Source of the DNA: Phycisphaerae bacterium
GTDB taxonomy: Bacteria > Planctomycetota > Phycisphaerae > UBA1845 > PWPN01
DNA length: 64,000 nucleotides
Assembly: GCA_012729395.1 (NCBI GenBank)
Contig: JAAYDF010000143.1
Span: forward strand, 7,971 to 71,970
Reading direction: 5' to 3'
The notes below the pieces were generated by a model that worked only from the letters and a program-made list of their open reading frames with translations, was not told where the DNA came from and ran no database searches. Shown here one piece after another: positions 691-16,270 of this stretch. Position 1 is the stretch's first letter. Each line of letters opens with the position of its first letter. Made by a program: the position numbers and the translations under genes.

Positions 691-3600
691 TCACGGTGCC
701 GCGTTCCCATACAGGGCCATCACCATGGAGATATCCACCACGTTGATTCGCCCGTCCAGGTTCACGTCGTACACGCACGTCGCCGAGGTGATCCCCGCCA
801 GCAGGTGGGTCTTCGTCGCCCCGACGTCGATGAGGTTCAGCACGCCGTCGCCGTTCACATCGCCTTCCAGGCAACGGACCTCGCAGTCCGCGTCGCCCAC
901 CAGCATCTGGTAGGGGGCATCCGCGCCCTTGAACTTGCCCGTCAGGTCGATCGTGTGCCGTGCGCCGTCGGCCAAGCCGGTCAACTCGATCACCAGCTTC
1001 AGCCCGCCGTCCGCCAGACTCACCGCCGTGACCGCGGCCGAGCTGCCGTTGACCAGCACGTCCTCCGCGTCCAGTGTCCCATCCGCCGCCTGTGCCGGAT
1101 GATCAAAAACCACCTCGACCTTCTGCAGCCCGAATCGTCGCGGCTCGGTCACCGGATCCTTGCTACCGTCCGCGTCCAGCACGATGGCCATATCCCCGAC
1201 TTCCAAGGCGTGCTCGCGTACGCTGGCCCACGAGACGATGCTCGGCGGTGGGGCGACCGCGTACAACACGCTGTTGTCCACGCTGGTCGAGGCCTCATTG
1301 GGATTCCCCGCTGCGTCCTGGATCGCGCCGGCCGTCACCGAAGGCTGGACCGTGCCGGCCACGTCGATGGCCGTCACCGAAACGACGTACGTCGTCCCAC
1401 TCCCGCTGACCGCGAAGACCACACCCTCGGCCGTCCCGCCCATGCTCACGCCAGTCTCATCGAAGCCGTCAACAGGCTCGCTGAAGACCACGTCGAACAC
1501 GATCGGCAGGAGCCCCGTCGGGTCATCCTGCTCGGCACCCTGCTCCACCGTGACCGTCGGCGAGCTGTTGTCGATGACCGCCGCTTCGCTTGGGCCGGCC
1601 GCCGGGTTGCCGTTGCCAGCACTGTCCGTCGCGGCATCCGCCACCACGCTCAGGGCCAGCGAGCCGTCGCCCGTGATCCCGCTTACCGTCACCGTATACT
1701 CGGTGCCACTGACCGCTTCGATGGTCACTTCCGTGTTCGCGGTGCCGCTGTGCTGGACAGCCACATCGTCGGAGCTGTCGAACCCACTGACTGCCTCGCT
1801 GAAAACCACGGCGAAGCTCACGCTGTCCGCGTTGGTCGGGCCGGTCGTGGACGGGGTGATCGACACCACGGTCGGCTCCGTGCCGTCGTACTCGAACGGG
1901 CCGTAGCTGAGCGTCGTGGCCGTAGCCACGCCGTCGCCGTTGAAGCTTTGCAGGTGCAGGTAGTACGCGCCGTCGCCATCACCGGGGGCGAGGCTGAGCG
2001 CCCCGGTGTTCCAGTTGGCCTCCGAGCCGGTGAAGCTGTACGAGTCGCTCTTGTTCCACGCGTATTTGAACTGAGCGACCCGGTAGGCGTTGCCGCCGTG
2101 CGAGCCGTCGCCGAAACCGGCCGGGTTCGAGAAGCCAAACAGCGTGCCGGCCGGGTACGTCGTGCCCGTGGATTGGTCGCTCGCCACGTTTTGCCCGATG
2201 GCAGGTGCCGCCGCCAGCGTTCGTTTGCTGCCGCTGGCCGTGCCGGACGACACGCTGTTGCCGTTGCGCGACTCGACCGAGAAGTTGTAGACGGTGTTTC
2301 CGGTGAGCCCCGAGGAGGTCCAGGCATTGGTGTTCTGGACCCAGCCGGAGTTGGTGCCGGCCGTAGCATTGCTGACCCGCACGCCGGATGAGCCGGCAGT
2401 CAGATTGGAGAACGTGCCGGCCGGCGCCGCTTGAATACTCGTCGCCGCCACCGTGCCGAAGGTCAAGCCGGTCGGGGCCTGGATCTTGGTGTACTTGGTG
2501 GTTGAGCCGACGTAGCTGGTGGTGTTCTGCCACGAGCCGCGACCCCCTCCGGTGTTGTCCCGGGCGGCAATGGTGTAGGTGTAGGCCGTGTTGGCCGACA
2601 GCCCGGTGTCGTTGTGCGTGGTGCCCGCCCCCCAGCCGTAAATGCCCGTGCTGCCGCGCTGGACGCGGACGCCGACGTCGCCGCGGCGGTAGCGGTGGCT
2701 GCCCGATGTCTCGCGGAGCTCAGCTGCCCCGTCGGGTGCGCCCGTCGCCCGGTCCGTCGGAATCGACCAGGCGAGATCGATCTGACTGGTGCTGGCGGCC
2801 GTCACCGAGGAGAAGCCCGGGTTGTTGGGAGCCACGCTGTCCACGAATCGCCGCACCCATACCTCGCCGGATTGCAGAGTGCCGTTGTCCTCCGACTTGA
2901 AGTACCAGAGGTTGTGCCCGTTGATGCTGCTGTTGTTGTGAGACCAGCTCGAGCCGCTGCCGGATACCTGGGTCAGAGAGACCGTACCGTTGTATCCCTC
3001 GCGGCGGTAGAGCACTCGTTTGAGGCCGCGCGTGCAGTAGCCGTCGCCGTTGTCGCTGGCCGATCCGCTGAATGATTGCGTCGTGTTGTTGCTGTAGGAC
3101 TCACCGCCCTGGCCACTGGCCGAGATCGACGGGGCCTGGTTGTCCCAGCGAATCCGCTGGAAGTGGGCGTTGGCCGCACTCCAATCTGAGGTGTACCAGC
3201 GGCGGGTCCACAGAACATCATTGCTGCCTTCCGTGTCGGCACGGAAGACGTAGCCCGTGTCGTTGATCCACGGCCCCCAGTTGTTCCAGGACCATTCCCA
3301 CGCCTTGTCGGCGGTCGTGTCCACGCAGGTGTAGGCCCCGGGCCCGCCTTCGTGACTGGCGCCGCCTGTCGTGTTCCAGGTAGCCCCGACGCCGCTGCCG
3401 CAGGTGCCGCCGGCGCCGAGTCCGCCTCCTTCGCTCCAGCTGTCATTGATGCCCCGGCGGTACCACAAATGGCCGTAGCACCCACCGCCTGCCGCCGCCT
3501 CCACCTTGCCCCAGGCGTACATCCAACACACCTGGTCCGTGTTGACCATGCCGCTGGGATGATTGAAACGCAGCATGCCCCGCCATACGGACGGGCCCGT

Positions 3601-5319
3601 CGCCCAGCGCCCGACACGCATCAGGCCCCACGCCCCGTGATTGCAGGTCCCGCCGCTGTAATAGGTGTCCACGCATGTATCCACCGGCCAGTTGTACAAC
3701 TCGCGGGCCGTCTCGAACTCCGGGTCGATGATGACGGGGTAAACCCGAGCCGCATCGGTCAACCACTCCTCGTCGGCCACCACACTGAATACCACCACCC
3801 CATCCGGGCGGGCGGCCATCTCGAAGGTCACCGCCTCCGACAGCGAATCCTCAGGAGCGTATTCACCCATCGTCAGCCACTTGGTGTCGATCATGTACGG
3901 GGCACCGACTCGGCAAATCTGCTCGCCGGACGCGTCCTCGAACCGCACCCATTTGCCCCCGGGGCCGACTTCCCAGCCCGCCCCCGCCGGCAGCTTCATC
4001 TCGAAATCGAACCGATGCCGGCCGGTGTACCGGCTCAGGATGATGTCCTCGTTGAGCTTCTTCTCGATCACCGTGTAGACCAGATCCACCCCTTCCATCA
4101 CCTCAGGGTATGCGATCGTGCCGTCCTCGACCCGAGGCGCCGCCGCCGCCGCGTCCAGAAGCCTGAAGTCGATCGCGAAACCCCGATCGTTGTAGCGATG
4201 GAAGCCGTCCGCCTTCGCGGCAAAGTAAGTCTCAAACGTGTTCGTCTTGTTCTCGTACGCAAACGGGCCCTTGCTGGGCACCAGGTTCAGATCGATCGGA
4301 TGCCACACGCCGGCCGCATCCTGGTAGTTGATCAGGGCCGCGTGCGTCTCGAAGGTGATGGCCCCATCCGGGTGCTGGAAGTAACGCGAGAAGCCCTCAC
4401 GCTTCTCGACCATCTCGATGGCATCCGGAGCGGGTGTATTCTCATGGGTCCAGATGTCACCCGACTTGATCTTGCGGGCTCGCCAGAACAGCCGGGCATC
4501 GCGGGCCACTTCCGGATCCAATTCAGGGGCCGGTCCAAGCTCCTCGGCCGCCAGGAAAGGGTCGACCCGGAAACTCGTCGGCTCAGACCAGGCCGACCAA
4601 TCGTGCCCGTCCCGCACGCGGACTCGCCAATGCCATGTGCCGCTGGCCAGGCCGCGAGGTACGTATCCGCCACTCGACGACCGCCGCTCGCCGCTGTCTT
4701 GCTCGATCGAGGCGAAGTCCAACTCGCTGGAGACCTGCACCTGGTAATGTGTCTGAGTCTGGTTGTCCGCGTCACCGTAGCGCCACGCCAGCAGGTAAGA
4801 GGGGTTGTTGGTTGTCTGGTTGTCCCGGCCGGTGGCGTTGACGGCCACAGGCGGGGTGTTGGCCATGCGGTAGATCCGCCCGCTCGGATCTCCGCCGTAG
4901 CGGCGATCCTTGTTACAGTCAGACTGATTGTCCCCGCTGTACACATACATGACGCAGGAGTAGGTCTGCGGGTAGTTCCCGGGGATGGCTACGTCGTGGT
5001 AGAACCGCCGCTCTGCCGGATCCCAACGCATCTCGACCGCCTGCAGAACGTCCCACCGGCCGTCCTCTGTGCCCAGCCAGATTCGGGCGGAGGCACCGCT
5101 CTGGCTTGGATCCTCGGATTGCCACGATTGCAGCCCATCATCCGAGCCGCCAATGAAGAAGCGAACCGTCTCGCCCTTGCGAACCGTTCCGCTGTCGCCG
5201 GGATCGACCGCCCATGGCGCCGTGACGGCCGCCTGGATTGCGGTGCAGAAACCGCCGATCACCAAGGCGGTGACCAACCCGTTTGTCAGCCATGTGTGGA
5301 ACGTGCTTCTGTGTGTCAT
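691..5319 (-). CDS. Giant secreted multidomain surface protein (Fn3/Ig-like repeats, DNRLRE-like region) with C-terminal double dockerin-type repeat
   Basis: 1542-aa ORF with an N-terminal signal-like TM (LVTALVIGGFCTAIQAAVTAPWA). It contains Fn3-like segments, paired Ig-like repeats (VSFAVVFSEAVSGFD / IVFDVVFSEPVDGFD) and a C-terminal GDVNGDGVLNLIDV...YDVNLDGRINVVDI Ca-binding dockerin pair. Confidence 0.85.
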   Translation of the reverse strand: MTHRSTFHTWLTNGLVTALVIGGFCTAIQAAVTAPWAVDPGDSGTVRKGETVRFFIGGSDDGLQSWQSEDPSQSGASARIWLGTEDGRWDVLQAVEMRWDPAERRFYHDVAIPGNYPQTYSCVMYVYSGDNQSDCNKDRRYGGDPSGRIYRMANTPPVAVNATGRDNQTTNNPSYLLAWRYGDADNQTQTHYQVQVSSELDFASIEQDSGERRSSSGGYVPRGLASGTWHWRVRVRDGHDWSAWSEPTSFRVDPFLAAEELGPAPELDPEVARDARLFWRARKIKSGDIWTHENTPAPDAIEMVEKREGFSRYFQHPDGAITFETHAALINYQDAAGVWHPIDLNLVPSKGPFAYENKTNTFETYFAAKADGFHRYNDRGFAIDFRLLDAAAAAPRVEDGTIAYPEVMEGVDLVYTVIEKKLNEDIILSRYTGRHRFDFEMKLPAGAGWEVGPGGKWVRFEDASGEQICRVGAPYMIDTKWLTMGEYAPEDSLSEAVTFEMAARPDGVVVFSVVADEEWLTDAARVYPVIIDPEFETARELYNWPVDTCVDTYYSGGTCNHGAWGLMRVGRWATGPSVWRGMLRFNHPSGMVNTDQVCWMYAWGKVEAAAGGGCYGHLWYRRGINDSWSEGGGLGAGGTCGSGVGATWNTTGGASHEGGPGAYTCVDTTADKAWEWSWNNWGPWINDTGYVFRADTEGSNDVLWTRRWYTSDWSAANAHFQRIRWDNQAPSISASGQGGESYSNNTTQSFSGSASDNGDGYCTRGLKRVLYRREGYNGTVSLTQVSGSGSSWSHNNSSINGHNLWYFKSEDNGTLQSGEVWVRRFVDSVAPNNPGFSSVTAASTSQIDLAWSIPTDRATGAPDGAAELRETSGSHRYRRGDVGVRVQRGSTGIYGWGAGTTHNDTGLSANTAYTYTIAARDNTGGGRGSWQNTTSYVGSTTKYTKIQAPTGLTFGTVAATSIQAAPAGTFSNLTAGSSGVRVSNATAGTNSGWVQNTNAWTSSGLTGNTVYNFSVESRNGNSVSSGTASGSKRTLAAAPAIGQNVASDQSTGTTYPAGTLFGFSNPAGFGDGSHGGNAYRVAQFKYAWNKSDSYSFTGSEANWNTGALSLAPGDGDGAYYLHLQSFNGDGVATATTLSYGPFEYDGTEPTVVSITPSTTGPTNADSVSFAVVFSEAVSGFDSSDDVAVQHSGTANTEVTIEAVSGTEYTVTVSGITGDGSLALSVVADAATDSAGNGNPAAGPSEAAVIDNSSPTVTVEQGAEQDDPTGLLPIVFDVVFSEPVDGFDETGVSMGGTAEGVVFAVSGSGTTYVVSVTAIDVAGTVQPSVTAGAIQDAAGNPNEASTSVDNSVLYAVAPPPSIVSWASVREHALEVGDMAIVLDADGSKDPVTEPRRFGLQKVEVVFDHPAQAADGTLDAEDVLVNGSSAAVTAVSLADGGLKLVIELTGLADGARHTIDLTGKFKGADAPYQMLVGDADCEVRCLEGDVNGDGVLNLIDVGATKTHLLAGITSATCVYDVNLDGRINVVDISMVMALYGNAAP

Positions 5320-5839: not shown

Positions 5840-6355
5840 ATGGGGACAACGCCGGCACAGGTGGCGATTATTCTGGGCAGCGACTCCGATTGGCCGGTCA
5901 TGCAGGTCTGTTTTCGGCAGTTGCGCGATTTCGGCCTGTTGGTCACCGTGGAGATCCTGTCGGCCCACCGAACGCCCGATAAACTGCGGGAGTTCGTGAT
6001 CGCCGCCACCGCGGCCGGTACCCAGGTTTTCATCACCGCCGCCGGGATGGCCGCTGCCCTCCCCGGTGTCGTTGCCGCGTGCACCACCCGCCCGGTTATC
6101 GGCGTTCCTCTCGCCTCAGGGGCCCTGCAGGGCGTCGACAGCCTGCTGAGCATCGTGCAAATGCCGCCGGGTGTGCCAGTTGCGACTGTGGCTATCGGGG
6201 AGGCTGGAGCCCGTAACGCGGCCGTCCTGGCCGTCCAGATCCTGGCCCTGAGCGACCCCCGGCTGGCTGAGGAACTTCAAAAATTCAAAAGAAACCAGGT
6301 GGATTCGGTCGATAAAAAGAACCAATCTTTGCGGGAGCAGTTGGGCCTTGGCTAA
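5840..6355 (+). CDS. purE: N5-carboxyaminoimidazole ribonucleotide mutase PurE
   Basis: VAIILGSDSDWPVM...LSAHRTPDKL...AAGMAAALPGVVAA.T..PVIGVP is the classic PurE core. The ORF-track start at 5594 adds about 80 non-homologous residues, so the internal ATG at 5840 (MGTTPAQV) is preferred. Confidence 0.88.
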   Translation: MGTTPAQVAIILGSDSDWPVMQVCFRQLRDFGLLVTVEILSAHRTPDKLREFVIAATAAGTQVFITAAGMAAALPGVVAACTTRPVIGVPLASGALQGVDSLLSIVQMPPGVPVATVAIGEAGARNAAVLAVQILALSDPRLAEELQKFKRNQVDSVDKKNQSLREQLGLG

Positions 6356-7403
6356 CCCCCTGTCTTACAAGACAATAGACTGGGTAGGCGGGTTGGACGG
6401 GGCGGTCGAGATGATCGACCAGACGCTCCTGCCCGAGGACGTGAAAATCCTCACGTGCCGCGATGTCGGAACCCTCTGGGAGGCGATCCGCAGCCTCCGC
6501 GTACGAGGGGCACCGGCCATTGGCGTGGCCGCGGCCATGGGGGTTGTCCTGGGAACCCGCGATGCCGCCGATCAGGCGGAGCTCTTTGAGAATCTGACTC
6601 GCGTCTGCGAGTACCTGGCGTCCAGTCGGCCTACGGCAGTCAACCTGTTTTGGGCGTTGGAGCGGATGCGGTCCCGGGCAGAAAGCCTGCGGAACCTGCC
6701 GCTCGAGGAGCTCAAACAGGCCTTGCTGACTGAGGCCCAAGCCGTGCGGGCGGAGGATGCCGCCATCTGCCGGGCCATTGGCCAAGCCGGGCAGCACCTG
6801 ATCCAAGACGGTGCGACGGTGCTGACCCACTGCAATGCGGGCGGGCTGGCCACGGCTGAATATGGGACGGCCCTGGCGATCATGTATGCCGCCCGGGAGA
6901 ATGGCCGGAGATTCCAGGTGTACGCGGACGAGACCCGCCCCCTGTTGCAGGGCGCCAGACTGACCGCCTGGGAATTATTTCGGGCAGGTATTGACGTCAC
7001 CGTGATTTGCGATAATGTGGCGGGTAGCTTGATGAAGGCTGGCCGGATTGGCTTGGTCGTGACTGGGGCGGATCGGATTGCCGCCAACGGTGACGCGGCC
7101 AATAAGATCGGCACTTACAGCCTTGCTGTATTGGCCCAGGCTCATGGCGTGCCCTTCTATGTGGCCGCCCCGAGGTCGACTTTCGACCTGAGCTTGGAGA
7201 ACGGCGAGGCCATTCCGATCGAGGTCCGACCGGCTGAGGAAGTCAGTCAGGTTTTTGGTAGGGTCGTGGTCCCGGAAGGGGTCGGGTGTTATAATCCGGC
7301 CTTTGATGTGACGCCGGCTCGGTTGATCCGGGGAATCGTCACGGAGCAAGGGATTATCGAACCGGTTCACCGCGACCGGATCCGTGAAGTTTTTGCGGGA
7401 TAA
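6348..7403 (+). CDS. mtnA: S-methyl-5-thioribose-1-phosphate isomerase (eIF-2B alpha/beta/delta family)
   Basis: MIDQTLLP...LRVRGAPAIGVAAA...THCNAG.LAT..YGTAL...TGADRIAANGD.ANKIGTY motifs. TTG start overlapping the purE stop by 8 nt. Confidence 0.82.
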   Translation: MANPLSYKTIDWVGGLDGAVEMIDQTLLPEDVKILTCRDVGTLWEAIRSLRVRGAPAIGVAAAMGVVLGTRDAADQAELFENLTRVCEYLASSRPTAVNLFWALERMRSRAESLRNLPLEELKQALLTEAQAVRAEDAAICRAIGQAGQHLIQDGATVLTHCNAGGLATAEYGTALAIMYAARENGRRFQVYADETRPLLQGARLTAWELFRAGIDVTVICDNVAGSLMKAGRIGLVVTGADRIAANGDAANKIGTYSLAVLAQAHGVPFYVAAPRSTFDLSLENGEAIPIEVRPAEEVSQVFGRVVVPEGVGCYNPAFDVTPARLIRGIVTEQGIIEPVHRDRIREVFAG

Positions 7404-7672
7404 GGGTTGCAAAGCTCAAGAAACTGTGTAAGATTCCGCCCCTTAGATCCGGAATCGCGGTCCACCCAGGGGTGGAGTGGTTGCGGCGGATCGATCGCAG
7501 AAGGCCTGCAGGGATCGGCTGGGTCGGCGCGGCTTGGCGATCGAGCAGTGAAAAATAGAGGACCATGCGTTTTTTACCGAGGCTAACGGCGCGGCGGAGG
7601 AGCCGCGGGTGCAAGCTTCGTTGGCCTCCCTGATGAGAGGCCTATCTTGTTCCCTTCTAAAGGAGGCTCACG

Positions 7673-7864
7673 ATGTCGAAGTGGAGCAGGCTCAGACTGG
7701 CGGTGTTGGTGGCTGCATCGACACTGCCGACATTGGTTTGGCAGGCTGGTTGTGCGACGGTGAAGATCCCTCTCTTGCTCCCGGGTCTCCCGGGCTTCAC
7801 CTTGCCGGACGGCTGGTACCAGCGTGTCATTCAGTACGTTGTGATCGCCAACATCTTCGATTGA
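7673..7864 (+). CDS. Small secreted/lipoprotein-like protein P1 (63 aa)
   Basis: AAAGGAGG sits 6 nt upstream of the ATG. Sequence: MSKWSRLRLAVLVAASTLPTLVWQAGC-ATVKIPLLLPG..., giving a signal peptide plus lipobox-like Cys. Paralogous to P3. Confidence 0.6.
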   Translation: MSKWSRLRLAVLVAASTLPTLVWQAGCATVKIPLLLPGLPGFTLPDGWYQRVIQYVVIANIFD

Positions 7865-7993
7865 TGGGGTCGGCTGCAGCGTACCGCGGGTTTGCCGGCG
7901 GGAGCCTTGCGTAAGGCTGCCCGGCGGCGGGCTCGGGGATGGGTTTGCATGCCCCCTGAGTGGGGGCCATCAGTACTACGAGGAGACTGAAAA

Positions 7994-8119
7994 ATGTCGA
8001 AGAAGCTTTGGGTCAAATGGAGTTTGCTGTTCGCGACCTCGGCGGTTGCGGTCTTCGGGTTCGGCGCTTGTATCGCCGACTTCCTGATGATGAACTTCAT
8101 TCTGCGCGGAGTCAACTGA
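7994..8119 (+). CDS. Small secreted/lipoprotein-like protein P2 (41 aa; below the ORF-track cutoff)
   Basis: AGGAG lies 8 nt upstream of the ATG. Hand translation: MSKKLWVKWSLLFATSAVAVFGFGACIADFLMMNFILRGVN*. It has the same MSK start and architecture as P1. Confidence 0.45.
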   Translation: MSKKLWVKWSLLFATSAVAVFGFGACIADFLMMNFILRGVN

Positions 8120-8268
8120 GTAGTTGGAGACGGCTGGGCTTGTGCCGGCATGTTCCGGGACAGGCCTGTGGAACCGTGGGGTTCGGCCGCGTCCCGGGCT
8201 CGCCCGTGGTGAGGTTCGGTGGATCGAGGGTTGAACCTGATCATTCAAGACACAAACGGAGGCTCGCA

Positions 8269-8451
8269 ATGTTCAAAAGACTGACGACCTGGTCTTATTT
8301 GGCTGCCTTGTCGGCGGCCTGTGTATTCCAGCTCGGCGGGTGTGCCAGCGTCAAGATTCCGCTGCCGCTCCCGCTGTTCTCTTACAGCCTGGATCTGGAT
8401 GCGCTGCCGCGGATCATCATCGCCATCCTGAACGAGGAATTGTTCGGTTAA
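8269..8451 (+). CDS. Small secreted/lipoprotein-like protein P3 (60 aa)
   Basis: Internal ATG of ORF 7960..8451, preceded by ACGGAGG. Sequence: MFKRLTTWSYLAALSAACVFQLGGC-ASVKIPLPLPL...RIIIAILNEELFG. It shares the post-Cys VKIPL motif and tail with P1. Confidence 0.6.
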   Translation: MFKRLTTWSYLAALSAACVFQLGGCASVKIPLPLPLFSYSLDLDALPRIIIAILNEELFG

Positions 8452-8623
8452 TCACGGCGGCACGTGGCTCGGCAAGCCCGTGGGTGAAGCAGGGCTCGTT
8501 GGCTGTTGCGGCCGAGGGGCTCTTGCCAGCCCGGGGCCTGTCGGAGGGCGCCTGGCCCAGTATGCCCACGGCAGAAGCCGGACCAGGCTTGTGACAATTC
8601 TACCATCGATGGAGGTCATTGTT

Positions 8624-8803
8624 ATGAAACGGTTGATGAGAGTCCTTTTGATCGCCGCTCTCGCGGTGCCCATGTTTCAGTTGGGTTGCCTGCAGAAGAC
8701 CGATGTGGACGGTGGTTGGGACGTTCTGCGACCCAATCCCGGTGCGCTGATTTGCGCCCGTATCCCGGCCCAGATCAGGAACCTGATTCTGATCTGCCGG
8801 TAA
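8624..8803 (+). CDS. Small secreted/lipoprotein-like protein P4 (59 aa)
   Basis: Internal ATG of ORF 8480..8803 with GGAGG 8 nt upstream. Sequence: MKRLMRVLLIAALAVPMFQLGC-LQKTDVDGG...IRNLILICR. Confidence 0.55.
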   Translation: MKRLMRVLLIAALAVPMFQLGCLQKTDVDGGWDVLRPNPGALICARIPAQIRNLILICR

Positions 8804-8929
8804 GCTAAGACCGCCCAAGGGTGCGAGCCGTGAAGCGCCGCTTTGCCTGAACGGCAAGGGCGGCACGGCCGGCCAGCAGAAGTGCGCTGCTCAAGTTGAG
8901 CGGTGCTTCATGGGCGCTCCGATTCAAAG

Positions 8930-8972
8930 CAGCTTCCCCGCCCTGACTGAGGCGGGGAAGCTGTCTTCTTTT
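8930..8972 (+). terminator. Intrinsic terminator after P1-P4
   Basis: A 13-bp perfect stem, cagcttccccgcc / ggcggggaagctg, with an 8-nt loop, followed by tcttctttt. Confidence 0.6.
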
Positions 8973-9204
8973 GGCAGGGCACTTCCGCTGTCCACGCAAG
9001 CCTGGATCCAGCCCGAAAAGCCACCCGAGCAAGCCTCGCCCGCGCTCCCTGGAGCGGAACACGACTACGTCAGCAAGGCGGCTGTTGCCGCCTTGCATGG
9101 ACGCTTGGGGGACTCTATACTGCCGCAGGTTACGGGCGATGGGGCATGACGCCGGCGGTGCCGCCTTGGGGCGGACGGGTTGCGGCGGCCTTGGGAGGTA
9201 TGCC

Positions 9205-9513
9205 ATGATGAACAGGCGATGGACGCGCATTTGGGTCTGGCTGAGCATGTTTCTGGCGGGGGCGACGGTTTTTCAGACCGGCGGGTTCACCACTAGGAAT
9301 GGAGCGATCTCCGGCGGCTGCAGCGACTTCTGGATCAACGGCGCGGCGACATCGGTCGATTTCTGTTACCTCCTGGATTGCGAGAACGGTTTTTTCGGCG
9401 GACTGATTCAGCCCTGCGACCCCAATAATCCTTTGCTCGTCGATTGCACGCCGGCGGGTGGAGACACGGACGATGACGAGGAGCAGGACGAGGAGGAGGA
9501 GGAAGACCAGTAA
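9205..9513 (+). CDS. Small secreted Cys-rich protein P5 (102 aa) with poly-acidic C-terminus
   Basis: Internal ATG of ORF 8971..9513 with GGGAGG upstream. Sequence: MMNRRWTRIWVWLSMFLAGATVFQTGG signal, five Cys, and a DTDDDEEQDEEEEEDQ tail. Confidence 0.6.
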   Translation: MMNRRWTRIWVWLSMFLAGATVFQTGGFTTRNGAISGGCSDFWINGAATSVDFCYLLDCENGFFGGLIQPCDPNNPLLVDCTPAGGDTDDDEEQDEEEEEDQ

Positions 9514-9587
9514 GCAGGTTTTGGGTGGAAGTATGCGGGTTGTGGTGGTGTCCGTGAGGGCGGCGATCTGGCAAAAGGGTGTGAGCG

Positions 9588-9845
9588 ATGCGACGACAGC
9601 GGAAATGGTGGATGATGTGGGTCTTGTTGGCTGCTCCTCTTGTTGGAACGGCCTGGGCGGATCTGAGTTGCATCAGCAAAGCAGCCCGCAACATCAACCC
9701 GTGCGGCACGATTCTGAACTGTGACCCGATCGAGTACGATCTATTGATGCACGATTATCCCGACTGGAGTCTGGACCCGACCTGCACGATCCCGGGATTG
9801 TGCGGCGGGCAGTACCCCTATGGCTCGGGCGACGACGACGAGTGA
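9588..9845 (+). CDS. Small secreted Cys-rich protein P6 (85 aa) with acidic C-terminus
   Basis: MRRQRKWWMMWVLLAAPLVGTAWA signal, five Cys, and a GSGDDDE tail. The Cys spacing motifs align with P5 (LLDCEN/ILNCDP; VDCTPAGG/PTCTIPGLCGG). Confidence 0.6.
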   Translation: MRRQRKWWMMWVLLAAPLVGTAWADLSCISKAARNINPCGTILNCDPIEYDLLMHDYPDWSLDPTCTIPGLCGGQYPYGSGDDDE

Positions 9846-9923
9846 CGGGCTGGACTTCGTGAGGCGCGGCACCGGGGGCATGCTGTCTGTCGTCTCGTGA
9901 ACCGGTTGAGATGCAGATGATGA

Positions 9924-9962
9924 GAACGCCTGTGTCCGAATGGGTGCAGGCGTTTTCCTTTT
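9924..9962. terminator. Hairpin plus T-run between convergent P6 and the regulator gene
   Basis: gaacgcctg ... caggcgtt(t) stem followed by ttccttt. Confidence 0.4.
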
Positions 9963-10026
9963 CGCGGGCAGTGACTTGCCGCGCATTGGCCGAGAAGCGA
10001 TGCTCGCTTGCCAGTAACCATGTGCC

Positions 10027-11139
10027 TCAGTGAGCTTGAGAGGTCGAGCTGCGGACAATCAGCCAGGTCGGCAGGAGGTCAATCCGGGTGTCGACCTGTT
10101 TGCCGTTGATGAGCCGCGCGATGTGCTGGTAGGCCCGCATACCCATTTCTTCGAGCGGTTGACGCACCGTGGTCAAAGGCGGATTGAGCAGGGCCGCGGA
10201 CTTGGTGTCGTCGAAGCCCACGAGGGAGATGGCGTTGGGCACGGAAATGTGGAGTTCCCGAAGGAGAGTGAGGGCCTCAAGGGCAAGGTAGTAACCGCCG
10301 GCCACGATCGCGGTCGGGCGGTTCTTGCTCTGAAGGGTAGCCGTCAGCCGGCCCATGGCGGCACCGGCCGCCTTGGCCAGCTCGGCATTGTAGACCAAAT
10401 TCTCGGCGACGGGGAGCCCGTGTGCACGCATCTCCGCCATGTATCCCTCGTAACGGTGAAGGCAATTCGTCGAATCGAGAGGGCCGTTCAAGATCGCGAT
10501 TCTTCGGTGGCCCAGCTCAATGAGATGCCGTACCGCCGCTTGCATGCCCTGGAAGTTCTGCGAGTCCACGCAGTGAAGGGTGGTGTCTTCCAGAGAGGCA
10601 CCCAGGACCAGAACCGGTCTTCTGGTTGCTGCTTCCTCCAGCATGGCAAACTGATGGCGATCGGGGTGGAAGCAGAGCAGGCCGTCCGCGCTGAGTACGT
10701 CGAGATCGCGGAGCGAGTGGCATCGCTGGATGACCAGTTCTCCGACGGGTTCGATGAGTTCGGCGGCCTCTCGAACGCCGGCGATAAGCCGACCGTGATA
10801 GAAGTCGCCCAGTGGATTGCACGGATGCAGCACCAAGCCGACGCGGAACTGCGGCTTGGCAGCCACTTGTGCCTCAAAATCATTGCGGACGAATGTGCCC
10901 CGGCCTCGTTCGCGGCGGACCCACCCTTCCTGGACAAGACACTGAATGGCCTTGTGCGCGGTGATCAGACTGACGTTGATCTGGGCGCTGATCTCGCCGG
11001 TGTTGGGCAGCTTCGAGTTGGGAGGGAAGCGTCCCTTGCGGATGGCCTCGGCAAGGATGCTCTTAGCCTGGAGGTAGCGGGGAACCGCTGACTCGGTGTC
11101 GACCTTATCGAGATGGACGAGCGGGCATCTGCCGGCCAC
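10027..11139 (-). CDS. GntR-type wHTH / LacI-type sugar-binding-domain transcriptional regulator
   Basis: N-terminus PRYLQAKSILAEAIRKGRFPPNSKLPNTGEISAQINVSLITAHKAIQCLVQEGWVRRERGRGTFV (GntR HTH). The C-terminus has the periplasmic-binding-fold pattern (ISLVGFDD...L.PPLTTVRQP). The start is uncertain: a GTG at 11139 with GGGGAG upstream is preferred over the track start at 11259. Confidence 0.75.
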   Translation of the reverse strand: MAGRCPLVHLDKVDTESAVPRYLQAKSILAEAIRKGRFPPNSKLPNTGEISAQINVSLITAHKAIQCLVQEGWVRRERGRGTFVRNDFEAQVAAKPQFRVGLVLHPCNPLGDFYHGRLIAGVREAAELIEPVGELVIQRCHSLRDLDVLSADGLLCFHPDRHQFAMLEEAATRRPVLVLGASLEDTTLHCVDSQNFQGMQAAVRHLIELGHRRIAILNGPLDSTNCLHRYEGYMAEMRAHGLPVAENLVYNAELAKAAGAAMGRLTATLQSKNRPTAIVAGGYYLALEALTLLRELHISVPNAISLVGFDDTKSAALLNPPLTTVRQPLEEMGMRAYQHIARLINGKQVDTRIDLLPTWLIVRSSTSQAH

Positions 11140-11596
11140 GACAATTGTCTCCCCTACGATTTGGACGGCGGCACGGAGACCTCTCCCAGGGCACCCGGCT
11201 CGTTGCGGGTACACCGCTCGTAGCCCTTGGTCCGCATGCAGATCAACACCGCCAAGCACGCATTATATAACGATTCTCTCCGGCTCTCAAGGGGCGCTGT
11301 AGAAGAGCGGATTCAAACCTCCCACGGGCGGGTGCTTAAAGCGAGGTTGTAGCCTTGTCCGTAGGGCTGTCGGTTTCCGTTGTTCCTTTGGCGGCCTGCA
11401 AGGCGGGGGGCTCCCGACCAAACCGGAGGGAGCTTCTCTCGTACTGGCCCGCCCCGGGCCCGCCTTGAGGGGCTGGTGCGGCATCACTGCTTCCTGGGTT
11501 GTGGGGGAAGGCGAAGGGTGGCGGGGCGGGAGCGTGATGCGGCCAATGGCGGGTGAACGGTTCCGGGGCAAGCGGCGTGAATGCCGGGAGGTTGGC

Positions 11597-12664
11597 GTGA
11601 CGGACACACAGGAGCGCAACGGGCGGGATGACTGGGGCGTGGCGAAGACGGGGGGTGTGTTGGAGGAGGCGTTGGTGATCGAGTCTCACCGGCTGGAGGG
11701 GACGCGGGCGCCGGAGGTGGTGCTGATTGCCCCCTGGGGCGACGTGCACTCGGTGAACGGGAGATTCGTGGTTGACGAAGAGGCCGTCCGGTTGGTGGTG
11801 GCGGCGTACGAACGGCACGCCACGGACATCCCGATCGACTACGAGCATCAGAGTCTGGGTGGGGTGTACGCCTCCCCGACGGGTCAGGCTCCGGCGGCGG
11901 GTTGGATTCGAGCCTTGCGTGCGGTATCGCCGGAGGATGCGGCGGCGGGCGAGGCGGGTCTGTTGGCCGAGGTGGCGTGGACGGCAGCGGCCCAGGCGAA
12001 GCTGTCGGCCGGTGAGTACCGGTACCTCTCGCCGGTGGTTCTGGTGCGCAAAACCGACCGCCGGGTGGTGGGATTGCACTCGGCGGCTCTGACCAACAAG
12101 CCGGCCATCGTGGGCATGAGACCCATCGTCAACCGGGTTGAGCTGGAGAGAGGGATCGCGACGGTGGAAGGGGACGCGGTGGTGGACACGGGTGTGCCCG
12201 ATGGCTGTGTGGTCGGGGGTTTGGCGGCCGGCATCGAGGTTTTGCGGCGACGACTGAGGCTGGACCGGGGCAGTGACCCGGTGGAGGTGTTGTTGGCGGC
12301 GGATCGACGGTTGGGGGTGCTGATGACCGAGGCTGCCGAGCGTGAGGCTTCGGCGAAAGTTGCGGCGGCCATGCAGGCCGGGCAACTCGCGCCGGCCCAG
12401 CGGGAGTGGGCGGTTCGCTTGGCGTTGAGCGACCCCGTCGCGTTCACGGAGTGGGCGGCGTCGGCGCCCGCGGTGGTCATGATCGGGCGCACGCAGCCTC
12501 CGAGCGGCGATGCGGCCCGGCAAGGTCGGGATCGGGCGGCGGTGATCGCCTCGGCCCGGGCTTCCTTTTCCGCCGAGCCGGATCTCGCGGCGCTGACCAG
12601 TGAGTCAGCGTGGGTGAATGACGCCCTGCGCGAGGCGGGGCTGGGGCCGGACAGCGAGAAATGA
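11597..12664 (+). CDS. Mu-like prophage protein I family (head maturation protease/scaffold)
   Basis: PIDYEHQS, AGWIRAL, YRYLSPVV and LTNKPAIVGM match my recollection of the Mu gpI family (PF10123). The Ala-rich helical C-terminal half looks scaffold-like. The start is uncertain: the GTG at 11597 has GGGAGG 5 nt upstream, while the track ORF begins at 11465. Confidence 0.7.
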   Translation: MTDTQERNGRDDWGVAKTGGVLEEALVIESHRLEGTRAPEVVLIAPWGDVHSVNGRFVVDEEAVRLVVAAYERHATDIPIDYEHQSLGGVYASPTGQAPAAGWIRALRAVSPEDAAAGEAGLLAEVAWTAAAQAKLSAGEYRYLSPVVLVRKTDRRVVGLHSAALTNKPAIVGMRPIVNRVELERGIATVEGDAVVDTGVPDGCVVGGLAAGIEVLRRRLRLDRGSDPVEVLLAADRRLGVLMTEAAEREASAKVAAAMQAGQLAPAQREWAVRLALSDPVAFTEWAASAPAVVMIGRTQPPSGDAARQGRDRAAVIASARASFSAEPDLAALTSESAWVNDALREAGLGPDSEK

Positions 12665-13712: not shown

Positions 13713-14630
13713 ATGGCGGTGATGAATACGGGGCTGTTGACCAAGGGGCTTCGCAGCGAGTTCTTCGAGCGGTATGGCGCAACGACGACCTACTACCAGG
13801 ACCTGGCGACGCGGATTCCATCCACGTCGGATTCGGAGACGTACCAATGGCTTGGTACGGTGCCGCGGATGCGGGAATGGGGCACGGGGCGGCTGGCCCG
13901 CGGCCTGAGGACTGAGAGGTACTCGCTGGAAAACCTGAAATACGAGGCGACGATCGAGGTCGACCGCGACGAGATCGCCGACGACCAGACGGGCCAGATT
14001 CGGATCCGCGTGGGCGAATTGGCCCAGCGAGCGGCGACGCACAAGGACTACCTGCTCGGCCAGTTGATGGTCAACGGCGGGGCGGACGCTTGCCAGAGCT
14101 ACGATGGGGCGGCGTTTTTCAGCGACGGGCACGTGTCGGGCGGATCTGGTGTGCAGGACAACGATCTGACCTTCGCGGCGGCGGCGGAGAGCGATGAGCC
14201 GACCACGGAGGAGTTCAAGGGGTCGCTCAAGCAGGCGATGGCCCGGATGCTGTCGTTCAAAGACGACCAAGGCGAACCGTTGGCGCTGAACATGACCGGC
14301 ATGGTGTGTCTGGTGCCGCCGTCGATGCTCTTCACGGCGATGGAGGCGGTGAACGCGACGGTGATCAACCAGACGTCGAACGTCCTGCAGGGAGCGGCTC
14401 GGGTGGTGGCTTTGCCGTGGCTGACCTCGCCGGCGGTGTGGTACCTGCTCAAGACGGATGGGGTGGTGCGGCCGTTCATTTTCCAGGACCGAGAGCCGAT
14501 CGAGTTTGGATCGCTGACGGAGGCGAGCGAGGAGGGATTCAAGCGAGAGAAGCTGCTGTTCGGGGTTCGGGCTCGATATCGGATGGCATACGGGTACTGG
14601 CAATTCGCTGTGCGGACGACGTTCGTGTGA
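13713..14630 (+). CDS. Mu-like major head subunit gpT family (HK97-fold capsid protein)
   Basis: 305 aa. YQWLGTVPRMREWGTGR, YDGAAFFSDGH, VRPFIFQDREPIE and LLFGVRARYRMAYGYWQFAV align with remembered Mu gpT motifs (YGWLG..P.L.EW.G.R, YDGQNFF..EH, VKPFIFQER, FLFG......GYGFWQMAV). Confidence 0.8.
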   Translation: MAVMNTGLLTKGLRSEFFERYGATTTYYQDLATRIPSTSDSETYQWLGTVPRMREWGTGRLARGLRTERYSLENLKYEATIEVDRDEIADDQTGQIRIRVGELAQRAATHKDYLLGQLMVNGGADACQSYDGAAFFSDGHVSGGSGVQDNDLTFAAAAESDEPTTEEFKGSLKQAMARMLSFKDDQGEPLALNMTGMVCLVPPSMLFTAMEAVNATVINQTSNVLQGAARVVALPWLTSPAVWYLLKTDGVVRPFIFQDREPIEFGSLTEASEEGFKREKLLFGVRARYRMAYGYWQFAVRTTFV

Positions 14631-15196: not shown

Positions 15197-16270
15197 ATGC
15201 GTCGCGTGGCGGTCATCAATCAGAAGGGCGGAGTGGGGAAAACCACTACGGCGGTGAACGTGGCGGCGGCCCTGGCGCGGGCCGGGCATCGCGTGTTGGT
15301 GATTGACCTCGACCCGCAGGCCCATTTGAGCTTGCACCTCGGGCTGGATCCGGCCGCCGGTCGCCCGGGAACGTACGAACTCCTGACCGGCTCAACTTCC
15401 ATTGCCAAGGCCCGCGTGAAGGTGGCGAATAACCTGTGGGCGGTGGGGGCAAGTATTGACCTGGCGGCGGCGGAGGTGGAGTTGGTCAGCGTGGTCGGGC
15501 GGGAGGTCATCTTGCGCGACCTGCTGGACCACCACACCGGCCGGGAAACCGACGCGCAACCTCCTCGGTACGATTACGTGATTGTGGATTGCCCACCGTC
15601 CCTGGGTGTGCTGACGCTCAATGGTCTGTGTGCGACCCAGGAGGTGATTATTCCGCTGCAACCGCACTTCTTGGCGCTGCAGGGTGTGGGCAAGCTGCTG
15701 GAGACGGTGCTGTTGGTCAGTCGGCGAATCAACCCGTCGTTGCACGTCGAGGGCGTGGTGATTTGCATGCACGACGCGGGGACGAAGTTGGCTGCGGAGG
15801 TGGTCGGGGATGTGCGCTCGTTCATGGAGGCCGCTCGCGGGCAGAATGTGCCGTGGTCGTCGGCTCGATTATTCGAGACGATGATCCGCAGGAATATCAA
15901 GCTGGCGGAAGCTCCCAGCTATGGGAAGAGTATCTTCGACTATGCCGCTGACAGCAACGGAGCGAAGGATTACGAGCGGTTGGCCATGGAGATTCACCGC
16001 GGGGTTGTCGCGGCCGCTCCAGAGGTGTCACTGGAGGGTGGCAATGGTGACGCGGCCGCCCGGCAAGCCTTGGGGAGCGGCGAAGAGCCGACCGATCGTG
16101 TGCCTTTGCCGCCGGACATGGCCGGCCCGCTGGTCGAGCCGGTAGCCGCGGATCCGCTCGCGGAGCATTTGCGGACCAGTTCGGTTGCAGCCATGCCCGA
16201 TGCCATCGGCGGGGCCATGTCGCAGCGCGACGATTCTTCGCAGCCCGCCCCCATCCACGACCAGAGATAG
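15197..16270 (+). CDS. parA: ParA/Soj-family ATPase with a roughly 90-aa acidic/Pro-rich C-terminal extension; no parB adjacent
   Basis: MRRVAVINQKGGVGKTTTAVN (deviant Walker A with signature Lys), VLVIDLDPQ and YDYVIVDCPPSLG. Confidence 0.85.
   Translation: MRRVAVINQKGGVGKTTTAVNVAAALARAGHRVLVIDLDPQAHLSLHLGLDPAAGRPGTYELLTGSTSIAKARVKVANNLWAVGASIDLAAAEVELVSVVGREVILRDLLDHHTGRETDAQPPRYDYVIVDCPPSLGVLTLNGLCATQEVIIPLQPHFLALQGVGKLLETVLLVSRRINPSLHVEGVVICMHDAGTKLAAEVVGDVRSFMEAARGQNVPWSSARLFETMIRRNIKLAEAPSYGKSIFDYAADSNGAKDYERLAMEIHRGVVAAAPEVSLEGGNGDAAARQALGSGEEPTDRVPLPPDMAGPLVEPVAADPLAEHLRTSSVAAMPDAIGGAMSQRDDSSQPAPIHDQR

Follow-up and report, generated by a model that had tools for sequence, protein, structure and literature searches.

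The 64,000-nucleotide (nt) stretch of a Phycisphaerae bacterium genome analysed here (GenBank assembly GCA_012729395.1, contig JAAYDF010000143.1; hereafter the window) carries six small genes, P1 to P6, on its + strand, between mtnA and a convergent gene for a GntR/LacI-type regulator. Judged from codon-level comparison with relatives, these six open reading frames (ORFs) are real genes under purifying selection, and by gene order in related contigs they form a cluster that has been passed on vertically, in unchanged order, within a broad group of uncultured Planctomycetota of the Phycisphaerae type. The favoured interpretation, to which a probability of roughly 55% is assigned, is that they encode Sec-exported, mostly lipid-anchored envelope micro-proteins acting together, with P5 and P6 bearing small disulfide domains; lipidation, disulfide bonding, association of the products and the envelope role are the parts of this interpretation that we infer. 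The deep conservation of the cluster, its linkage to mtnA, its P5-P6 core and a seventh gene present in relatives (P7) were not recognised in an earlier reading of the same DNA (the original prediction), which is otherwise borne out in what it observed and partly right in how it explained it.

Organisation of the locus

Direct reading of positions 7000-10600 together with the ORF listing places all six genes between mtnA (6348-7403; Pfam IF-2B), beyond which purE is a further upstream neighbour, and the convergent regulator gene (10027-11259) downstream of P6; mtnA and the regulator had been named before as the flanking genes. The six genes are as follows, with lengths in amino acids (aa):

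7673-7864, + strand: P1, 63 aa; signal-like N-terminus, Cys27, ATVKIPLLLP insert, tail WYQRVIQYVVIxNxFD
7994-8119, + strand: P2, 41 aa; signal-like N-terminus, FGAC lipobox, 16-aa mature part CIADFLMMNFILRGVN
8269-8451, + strand: P3, 60 aa; signal-like N-terminus, Cys25, ASVKIPLPLP insert, tail PRIIxAILxEExFG
8624-8803, + strand: P4, 59 aa; signal-like N-terminus, Cys22; the most variable of the six
9205-9513, + strand: P5, 102 aa; N-terminal signal ending VFQTGGF, core SVDFCYLLDCENGFFGGxxQPC...LVDC, acidic low-complexity tail
9588-9845, + strand: P6, 85 aa; signal-like N-terminus, Cys28, core NPCGTILNCDP...PDWxLDPTCTIPGLC, short acidic tail

Each start is preceded, at a distance of 6-8 nt, by a Shine-Dalgarno motif (GGAGG, AGGAG, GGGAGG or AAGGG). 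The starts of P3, P4 and P5 were re-derived and differ from those of the longer spurious ORFs in which these genes are nested (7960-8451, 8480-8803 and 8971-9513, respectively). The description given in the original prediction is accurate on all these points, namely six same-strand ORFs with Shine-Dalgarno sequences, a short P2 (41 aa), three ORFs hidden in longer spurious ones, and the listed sequence motifs with five Cys in each of P5 and P6. Routine annotation misses small proteins of this kind: in GenBank, P1, P3 and P5 appear at full length as hypothetical proteins (NLX21550, NLX21551 and NLX21553), P4 (NLX21552, 55 aa) and P6 (NLX21554, 77 aa) are given truncated starts, and P2 has no listed accession.

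Coding status and selection

Codon-aware comparison was made with a sister genome (L081, MtnA 86% identical) that carries all six genes, chosen because synonymous sites are saturated against more distant loci. The ratio of non-synonymous to synonymous substitution rates (dN/dS) is 0.16 for P1, 0.05 for P2, 0.17 for P3, 0.30 for P4, 0.13 for P5 and 0.08 for P6, with 0.12 for mtnA, so that constraint on the set, which is kept across a wide uncultured part of the Planctomycetota, is as strong as on the adjacent housekeeping gene. At the DNA level, P1, P2, P3, P4 and P6 are 79-92% identical to L081, above the adjoining spacers (41-80%), and even the variable P4 stands at 80.4% versus 73-74% for its own spacers. 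The figure for P5 (71%) is lowered by misalignment of its variable acidic tail, where a 4-nt gap is an artefact of the nucleotide alignment and the codon alignment stays in frame. Insertions and deletions in P1 (9 nt), P4 (6 nt) and P6 (3 nt) are multiples of three, those of the spacers being mostly 1-4 nt, and the mismatches in P1, P2 and P6 fall mainly at third codon positions. Across loci, amino-acid motifs are conserved with DNA diverged past saturation.

A region with a G+C content of 61-63%, many long stop-free stretches on both strands and common intergenic hairpins could in principle yield spurious ORFs over non-coding DNA or a regulatory RNA. This reading is rejected because of the dN/dS values, the higher identity of genes than of spacers, the third-position mismatches and the in-frame indels; the protein motifs kept despite DNA saturation, the conserved ribosome-binding sites and the lack of any match to Rfam covariance models in 7300-10100 (E <= 1) also speak against it, and its probability is negligible. 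Maintenance of the ORFs in relatives and the balance of amino-acid and nucleotide conservation had both been proposed as checks: all six are open, and in the same order, in dozens of related loci, and with dN/dS no higher than 0.30 and conserved ribosome-binding sites, the claim that the mini-genes are genuinely translated with export-type N-termini is supported.

Distribution and order of the cluster

Relatives were collected by word-based searches, by phmmer with P6, by a metagenome scan with the P6 alignment, and by matching a P2 pattern to GTDB species genomes. The word-based searches returned only a handful of relatives for P1/P3, P2 and P5, whose contigs all show the same locus. Exhaustive phmmer with P6 yielded 74 cluster representatives, with about 60 small proteins (71-183 aa) sharing the P6 architecture of a signal, a Cys, NPCGT[IV]LxCDP, PD[WY]xxDP[TS]CTIPGxC and a low-complexity tail; the metagenome scan returned 64 loci. 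The taxonomic range rests mainly on metagenome contigs, because the GTDB scan with the P2 pattern gave only three species, all metagenome-assembled genomes of Planctomycetota. Large P6 matches (proteins with leucine-rich repeats or immunoglobulin (Ig)-like surface proteins where Pfam-scanned; also P0052 and P0073), which consist of many weak stretches, were set aside as non-homologous. In the 6010-aa P0052, 44 separate stretches match P6 residues 44-74, and several stretches of the leucine-rich or Ig-repeat proteins do so too, which is treated as repeat-driven chance similarity.

Family hidden Markov models, together with the window's PurE, MtnA and regulator, were mapped onto all loci to read gene order. 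In about 80 related loci (L001-L015 and L017-L087) the order is mtnA, P1-P2-P3-P4, P5-P6 and then often P7, and it is never permuted; mtnA lies upstream of the cluster in 27 loci, with MtnA 57-86% identical to that of the window, and the cluster is present once per locus examined. In six loci (L001-L006), purE and mtnA are followed by four genes, of 46, 40, 46 and 50 aa, orthologous one-to-one to P1-P4. Two others (L007 and L015) have mtnA, P2 alone of P1-P4, a P5-like and a P6-like gene and then the same convergent regulator; P1, P3 and P4 are missing from these two and from L040, where P2 is again the sole member of P1-P4 kept, and L064, L071 and L073 lack all of P1-P4. The layout in L011 and L014 is P1-P4, an inserted BNR_2 gene, P5, P6 and then P7 (51-52 aa). 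Position-equivalent orthologues of P1 in other lineages measure 40-46 aa and those of P4 41-62 aa, and a distant clade has recognisable orthologues of every member.

The seventh small gene, which follows P6 and is absent from this window, is found as follows:

L011 6809-6967, L014 13035-13190 and many of L017-L048: P7, 51-53 aa

In its product the signal leads to a Cys, with Asp, Glu or Gln usually in the next position, and to a hydrophobic tail of 27 residues. All seven families are invariably grouped at a single locus, with members lost as blocks. P5-P6 are present at nearly all loci and, on this pattern of gene content, constitute the core of the cluster, P1-P4 and, in relatives, P7 being accessory.

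Downstream of the cluster the neighbours vary by lineage and include the regulator, BNR_2, lutABC-like genes (a label that comes from reading the sequences, without a Pfam run), a MurD-like gene, FtsK and flagellar genes. This variation bears on whether the small genes could be remnants of a phage lysis cassette, encoding small lipoprotein spanins or holin-like peptides, that belonged with Mu-like genes further downstream. The window does contain genes for a Mu-like prophage protease I (11465-12664) and a major head subunit gpT (13713-14630), 1.6-4.8 kb downstream of the cluster, and o-spanins are small lipoproteins. However, the same mtnA-linked cluster occurs in loci without phage genes, which have BNR_2, lutABC-like, MurD-like or flagellar genes instead, PHROGs gives no significant match, and the convergent regulator gene stands between the cluster and the Mu-like genes, which leaves a phage origin highly improbable. 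A gene for a ParA-like ATPase (15197-16270) follows the Mu-like genes, and this region looks like a prophage or its remnant.

Transcription units and the P1 leader

Conserved promoter-like elements and an intrinsic terminator indicate that the cluster is read as two transcription units, P1-P4 and P5-P6 (plus P7 in relatives). The signals in the window are:

7407-7434, + strand: promoter-like element TTGCAA-16-TAAGAT, directly after the mtnA stop, for the P1-P4 unit
7441-7672, + strand: P1 5' leader, about 230 nt, with conserved hairpins
8929-8972, + strand: intrinsic terminator, a 14-bp stem (10 G-C pairs) at 8929-8964 followed by CTTCTTTTGG, ending the P1-P4 unit
9093-9121, + strand: promoter-like element TTGCAT-17-TATACT, for the P5-P6 unit
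9922-9963, + strand: terminator-like hairpin after P6, with a 16-bp stem (G-U pairs counted) and a T-rich run behind it, facing the end of the regulator gene

In 20 of 22 distinct related loci the first small gene is preceded, at 160-360 nt, by a TTGnnn-16-TAnnnT element, a position that implies a 5' leader of about 170-350 nt across loci, and in 42 of 43 distinct loci P5 is preceded, at 70-170 nt, by a single TTGnnn-17/18-TATA[CGT]T element. A promoter function for both elements rests on this conservation, because both score below the threshold of a generic sigma-70 scan. The strong intrinsic terminator that had been proposed to split P1-P4 from P5-P6 was detected at the coordinates listed, and the region after P4 folds with z = -4.6 versus shuffled sequences. 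P4 and P5 are adjacent in five of 12 sampled loci (the window, L077, L069, L063 and L078), all five with a T-run in the spacer, and the P5-P6 spacer is short (25-110 nt). The hairpin after P6 comes from RNAfold of 9846-10026 and direct reading, the simple terminator scan not having listed it.

Alignments and RNAalifold over eight loci reveal three conserved hairpins in the P1 leader, one of them with compensatory changes. An invariant GGCCTCC...GAGAGGCC hairpin (7623-7642), flagged as terminator-like by the simple scan, is followed by a T-rich run just before the AAAGGAGGC ribosome-binding site, and RNAalifold also predicts base-pairing between the leader's 5' end and the Shine-Dalgarno region. 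The minimum free energy of the whole leader is unexceptional (z = -0.9). Equivalent conserved leaders are found in L001 (7733-8003), L011 (2674-2926) and others, and the P1 leader may be an unrecognised cis-regulatory element.

Export signals and the conserved cysteine

All six proteins of the window begin with an n-region of net charge +2 to +4 followed by an apolar run of 12-20 residues, in keeping with the positive n-region and hydrophobic region of about 7-22 residues of type II signal peptides. Every family has an invariant Cys immediately behind its hydrophobic segment; in the P5 of the window, it is Cys39 that aligns with the distant-clade Cys directly following that segment. Lipidation is, on these sequence features, the best reading we infer for an invariant Cys at the signal end.

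Among the long ORFs of the window, only one of 635 aa (47326-45419, - strand), which begins MSFRGSSHRRTRWAAVLIMATLSAGGCESS and whose N-terminus ends ...LSAGGC, has a lipoprotein-type N-terminus; its Gly-Gly-Cys box is like that of several of the small genes.

Mature parts and family relationships

Profile-profile comparison (hhalign) and BLASTP find similarity between the families in the N-terminal signal region alone; no relationship is detectable among the mature parts of the six proteins. The division into two sub-families (P1-P4 and P5-P6) put forward in the original prediction is dropped for this reason, and the alignable sub-motifs it had described for P5 and P6 were not recovered by either method. 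The cluster is thus, as far as these comparisons reach, made up of two transcription units with six distinct families, not two sub-families. A tail motif that appeared by eye to be shared by P1, P2 and P3 was likewise discarded, since BLASTP and hhalign find nothing in the mature parts.

The conserved P1 tail reads QR[VI][VIL]QYVVIGNLFD, P2 has the motif C[IL]ADF[LV]L....V[ND], and the P3 tail is PRIIxAILxE[DE]xFG, with a Trp-rich FWxGxWNTGWP segment in the distant clade. P5 has four conserved core Cys (DFCxxxxC...PC...DC) and a fifth, Cys39; P6 has the post-signal Cys and four core Cys. P1 and P3 share an 11-residue insert after the Cys (CATVKIPLLLP at 7751-7783 and CASVKIPLPLP at 8341-8373) with nine of 11 residues identical, five of which use different codons; the match is kept at the protein level and not as recent gene conversion because of these codon differences. 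The motif CA[TS]VKIPLxLP had been reported correctly, although it is an insert of the window lineage only, absent from the 46-aa P1/P3 orthologues of other lineages. The poly-acidic tails noted for P5 (9463-9510) and P6 (9826-9842) are likewise real in the window lineage but not conserved: the tails of relatives (P0041-P0045 and P0053-P0072) are mostly rich in Thr, Gly and Asn and often end in an aromatic residue plus Gly (...GGF, ...GFGF), so that the composition varies and the presence of a tail is constant.

None of the six proteins matches Pfam or NCBIfam (E <= 10), PHROGs or PADLOC, Pfam gives no match for 62 P6-family members, and a search of PDB sequences with P5 and P6 profiles returned chance-level matches only, which agrees with the earlier statement that the proteins cannot be assigned to a known family. 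The lack of matches in PHROGs, PADLOC, Pfam and NCBIfam, together with the varying downstream neighbours, speaks against the cluster having arisen as a mobile, toxin or defence element.

A predicted envelope module

Taken together, the two adjacent units would encode six different, very small Sec-exported proteins, most of them probably lipidated at the invariant Cys where the signal ends. The predicted mature forms of P1-P4 are lipopeptides of about 16-38 residues whose short hydrophobic tails are conserved (the predicted mature lengths of P1-P4 and P7 span 13-43 residues across the families), and those of P5 and P6 are domains of about 55-65 residues, each with two disulfides and a low-complexity tail. 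The products would then form a module that structures or organises the cell envelope and would not be independent toxins or signals. That they work together is suggested by their joint inheritance, the order fixed beside mtnA and the arrangement of a P5-P6 core with accessory P1-P4 and P7. An envelope module is favoured over toxins, signals or phage lysis on account of co-inheritance, strong ribosome-binding sites, constraint, loss as blocks, and the lack of transporter, immunity or maturation genes.

The lipobox evidence on this interpretation is uneven, and several other observations weigh against it. Under a strict, PROSITE PS51257-style lipobox rule ([LVI][ASTVI][GAS]C directly after the hydrophobic region), only P2 passes at the conserved Cys, P3 passing only at another Cys. 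Under a relaxed rule, which asks for uncharged residues followed by a small residue and a Cys, P1-P4 pass, and P5 and P6 of the window fail both rules, the relaxed one because of an Asp at -3 in P6 and because 15 residues including an Arg separate the hydrophobic segment from Cys39 in P5. The lipobox-like Cys of the original prediction accordingly holds for P1-P4 by the relaxed rule and, at the conserved position, for P2 alone by the strict one; the cleavable-looking signals of P5 and P6 do not qualify as lipobox type. In favour of lipidation, the relaxed rule is passed among relatives by 18 of 23 P1, 38 of 50 P6 and 18 of 19 P7 sequences (the P2 family, at 5 of 14, has the lowest rate), against a background of 1.7% of window start codons for the relaxed signal-plus-Cys pattern. 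On the other side, position -1 is Thr or position -2 is Asn in distant relatives of P2 and P3. Beyond the signals, hydrophobic-moment analysis gave no clear amphipathic helix for the hydrophobic P1-P4 tails, and AlphaFold2 gave no usable fold (predicted local distance difference test score of 64 for P6 with 62 sequences and of 45 for P5 with seven). Conserved gene order is by itself no proof of a complex, and the search across loci for a conserved functional neighbour found only mtnA and purE recurring, neither of them functionally informative.

The same irregular lipoboxes, with Thr at -1 or Asn at -2 in some members, would also suit proteins that are uncleaved anchors, that is, single-pass inner-membrane micro-proteins serving as accessory subunits, whose boundary Cys would form inter-subunit disulfides or bind a cofactor. 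Apolar runs of 12-20 residues could nearly span a membrane, and in P7 even the mature part consists of a hydrophobic segment, 27 residues long. There is also precedent: large membrane complexes such as cytochrome b6f (PetG/L/M/N) typically contain arrays of one-helix subunits of 30-40 aa, and PetG/L/M/N, PsbI-M and CydX are conserved hydrophobic proteins of 30-60 aa that are encoded together and assembled into one complex. In contrast to the cluster proteins, these subunits lack the layout of a basic N-terminus, a hydrophobic segment and a small residue plus Cys, and they are encoded with or near large subunits, no such partner genes being linked to the cluster. The N-termini of the cluster proteins, in which a basic n-region and a short hydrophobic region lead to a small residue plus Cys at positions 22-28, have the classic type II layout, the hydrophobic regions of P1 and P4 (12-15 residues) are short for a membrane-spanning helix, and genes of large membrane complexes are not consistently adjacent. 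Membrane anchoring without cleavage is accordingly judged unlikely, if still deserving of consideration beside the lipid-anchored envelope module.

Secreted peptide toxins, bacteriocins or signalling peptides, which had been among the functions suggested earlier, are improbable to a greater degree. The products are small, some are Cys-rich, several have N-termini ending in Gly-Gly-Cys, and a bacteriolytic action has been proposed for small lipoproteins of the entericidin type (PMC7296081). Nonetheless, the surroundings of the cluster held no gene for a transporter, for immunity or for a maturation enzyme in any of the lineages examined, and the earlier remark that a modifying enzyme, exporter or immunity gene is missing next to the array holds for the neighbours in the window. 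The leaders are of the Sec type (basic and hydrophobic) and not of the acidic double-glycine type. Of the features that mark double-glycine bacteriocins and ribosomally synthesised and post-translationally modified peptides, neither an acidic, amphipathic Gly-Gly leader in the proteins nor a C39-peptidase ATP-binding cassette transporter or modifying enzyme among the examined neighbours was found. Bacteriocin loci are usually patchy in distribution and fast-evolving, whereas this cluster occurs once per locus, is inherited vertically and keeps its order and housekeeping-like dN/dS across lineages down to 57% MtnA identity (range 57-86%). Pfam, including its Entericidin family, has no match.

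Comparison with known systems

Entericidins, the chlamydial OmcA/OmcB pair and the YTV proteins are, by layout and setting, the nearest analogies to the cluster, and none is a sequence relative. Entericidin A/B (E. coli ecnA/ecnB; Agrobacterium Atu8019) are likewise tandem precursors of 40-55 aa with a lipoprotein-type signal and mature parts of about 20-35 residues, Atu8019 being a surface-exposed 32-aa lipoprotein (PMC7296081). The cluster differs in having no sequence relationship to them (no Pfam match at E <= 10), in consisting of six or seven distinct families in fixed order and not of a two-gene toxin/antidote pair, in tails that are hydrophobic instead of Gly/Ser-rich and amphipathic, and in its restriction to Planctomycetota.

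OmcA is a 9-kDa Cys-rich lipoprotein of chlamydiae, encoded beside a second Cys-rich protein, and belongs to a disulfide-stabilised assembly that gives the envelope structure (PMC2811131). Both systems belong to the PVC (Planctomycetes-Verrucomicrobia-Chlamydiae) superphylum, P5 and P6 likewise are small, contain Cys, carry export signals and are encoded side by side, and P6 resembles OmcA in being ambiguous between signal peptidase I and signal peptidase II processing. Unlike OmcA/OmcB, P5 and P6 have no Pfam match and only four core Cys each, and both partners are small.

The YTV proteins are Cys-rich, come from cell-wall preparations and are lineage-specific (Planctomycetales; PMC8567305). 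They would share with P5 and P6 the character of Cys-rich planctomycete envelope proteins restricted to one lineage. They differ in being large and reported only in Planctomycetales, and P5 and P6 match no Pfam family, Pfam including one for YTV. The analogy to the YTV proteins is a functional speculation.

A more specific and distinctly more tentative version of the envelope interpretation would be a lineage-specific assembly in which a lipid-anchored, disulfide-stabilised P5-P6 heterodimer forms the core and is decorated by the P1-P4 and P7 lipopeptides, with a structural role in this clade like that of the YTV proteins in Planctomycetales or of OmcA/OmcB in Chlamydiae. If so, mature P1 and P2 would be among the shortest conserved bacterial lipoproteins known.

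Significance and other features of the window

The cluster is made up of protein families that have not been described before, conserved with unusual tightness; their general type, that of small exported envelope proteins with a probable lipid anchor, is a known one. Should they be lipid-anchored envelope components that act together, they would amount to seven new protein families and a clade-specific envelope architecture, and a clade-specific component would matter for the planctomycete cell envelope, which has long been debated. If they are ordinary minor lipoproteins, their practical value is limited to better annotation. The cluster also provides a clean case for testing very short lipoproteins, whose mature parts would be as small as about 13-16 residues, and its fixed order and linkage to mtnA make it a useful genomic marker for the clade.

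Elsewhere in the window, a 1542-aa protein (691-5319, - strand) combines Ig-like domains with a C-terminal dockerin type I domain, a cellulosome-type module that is unusual for a planctomycete.

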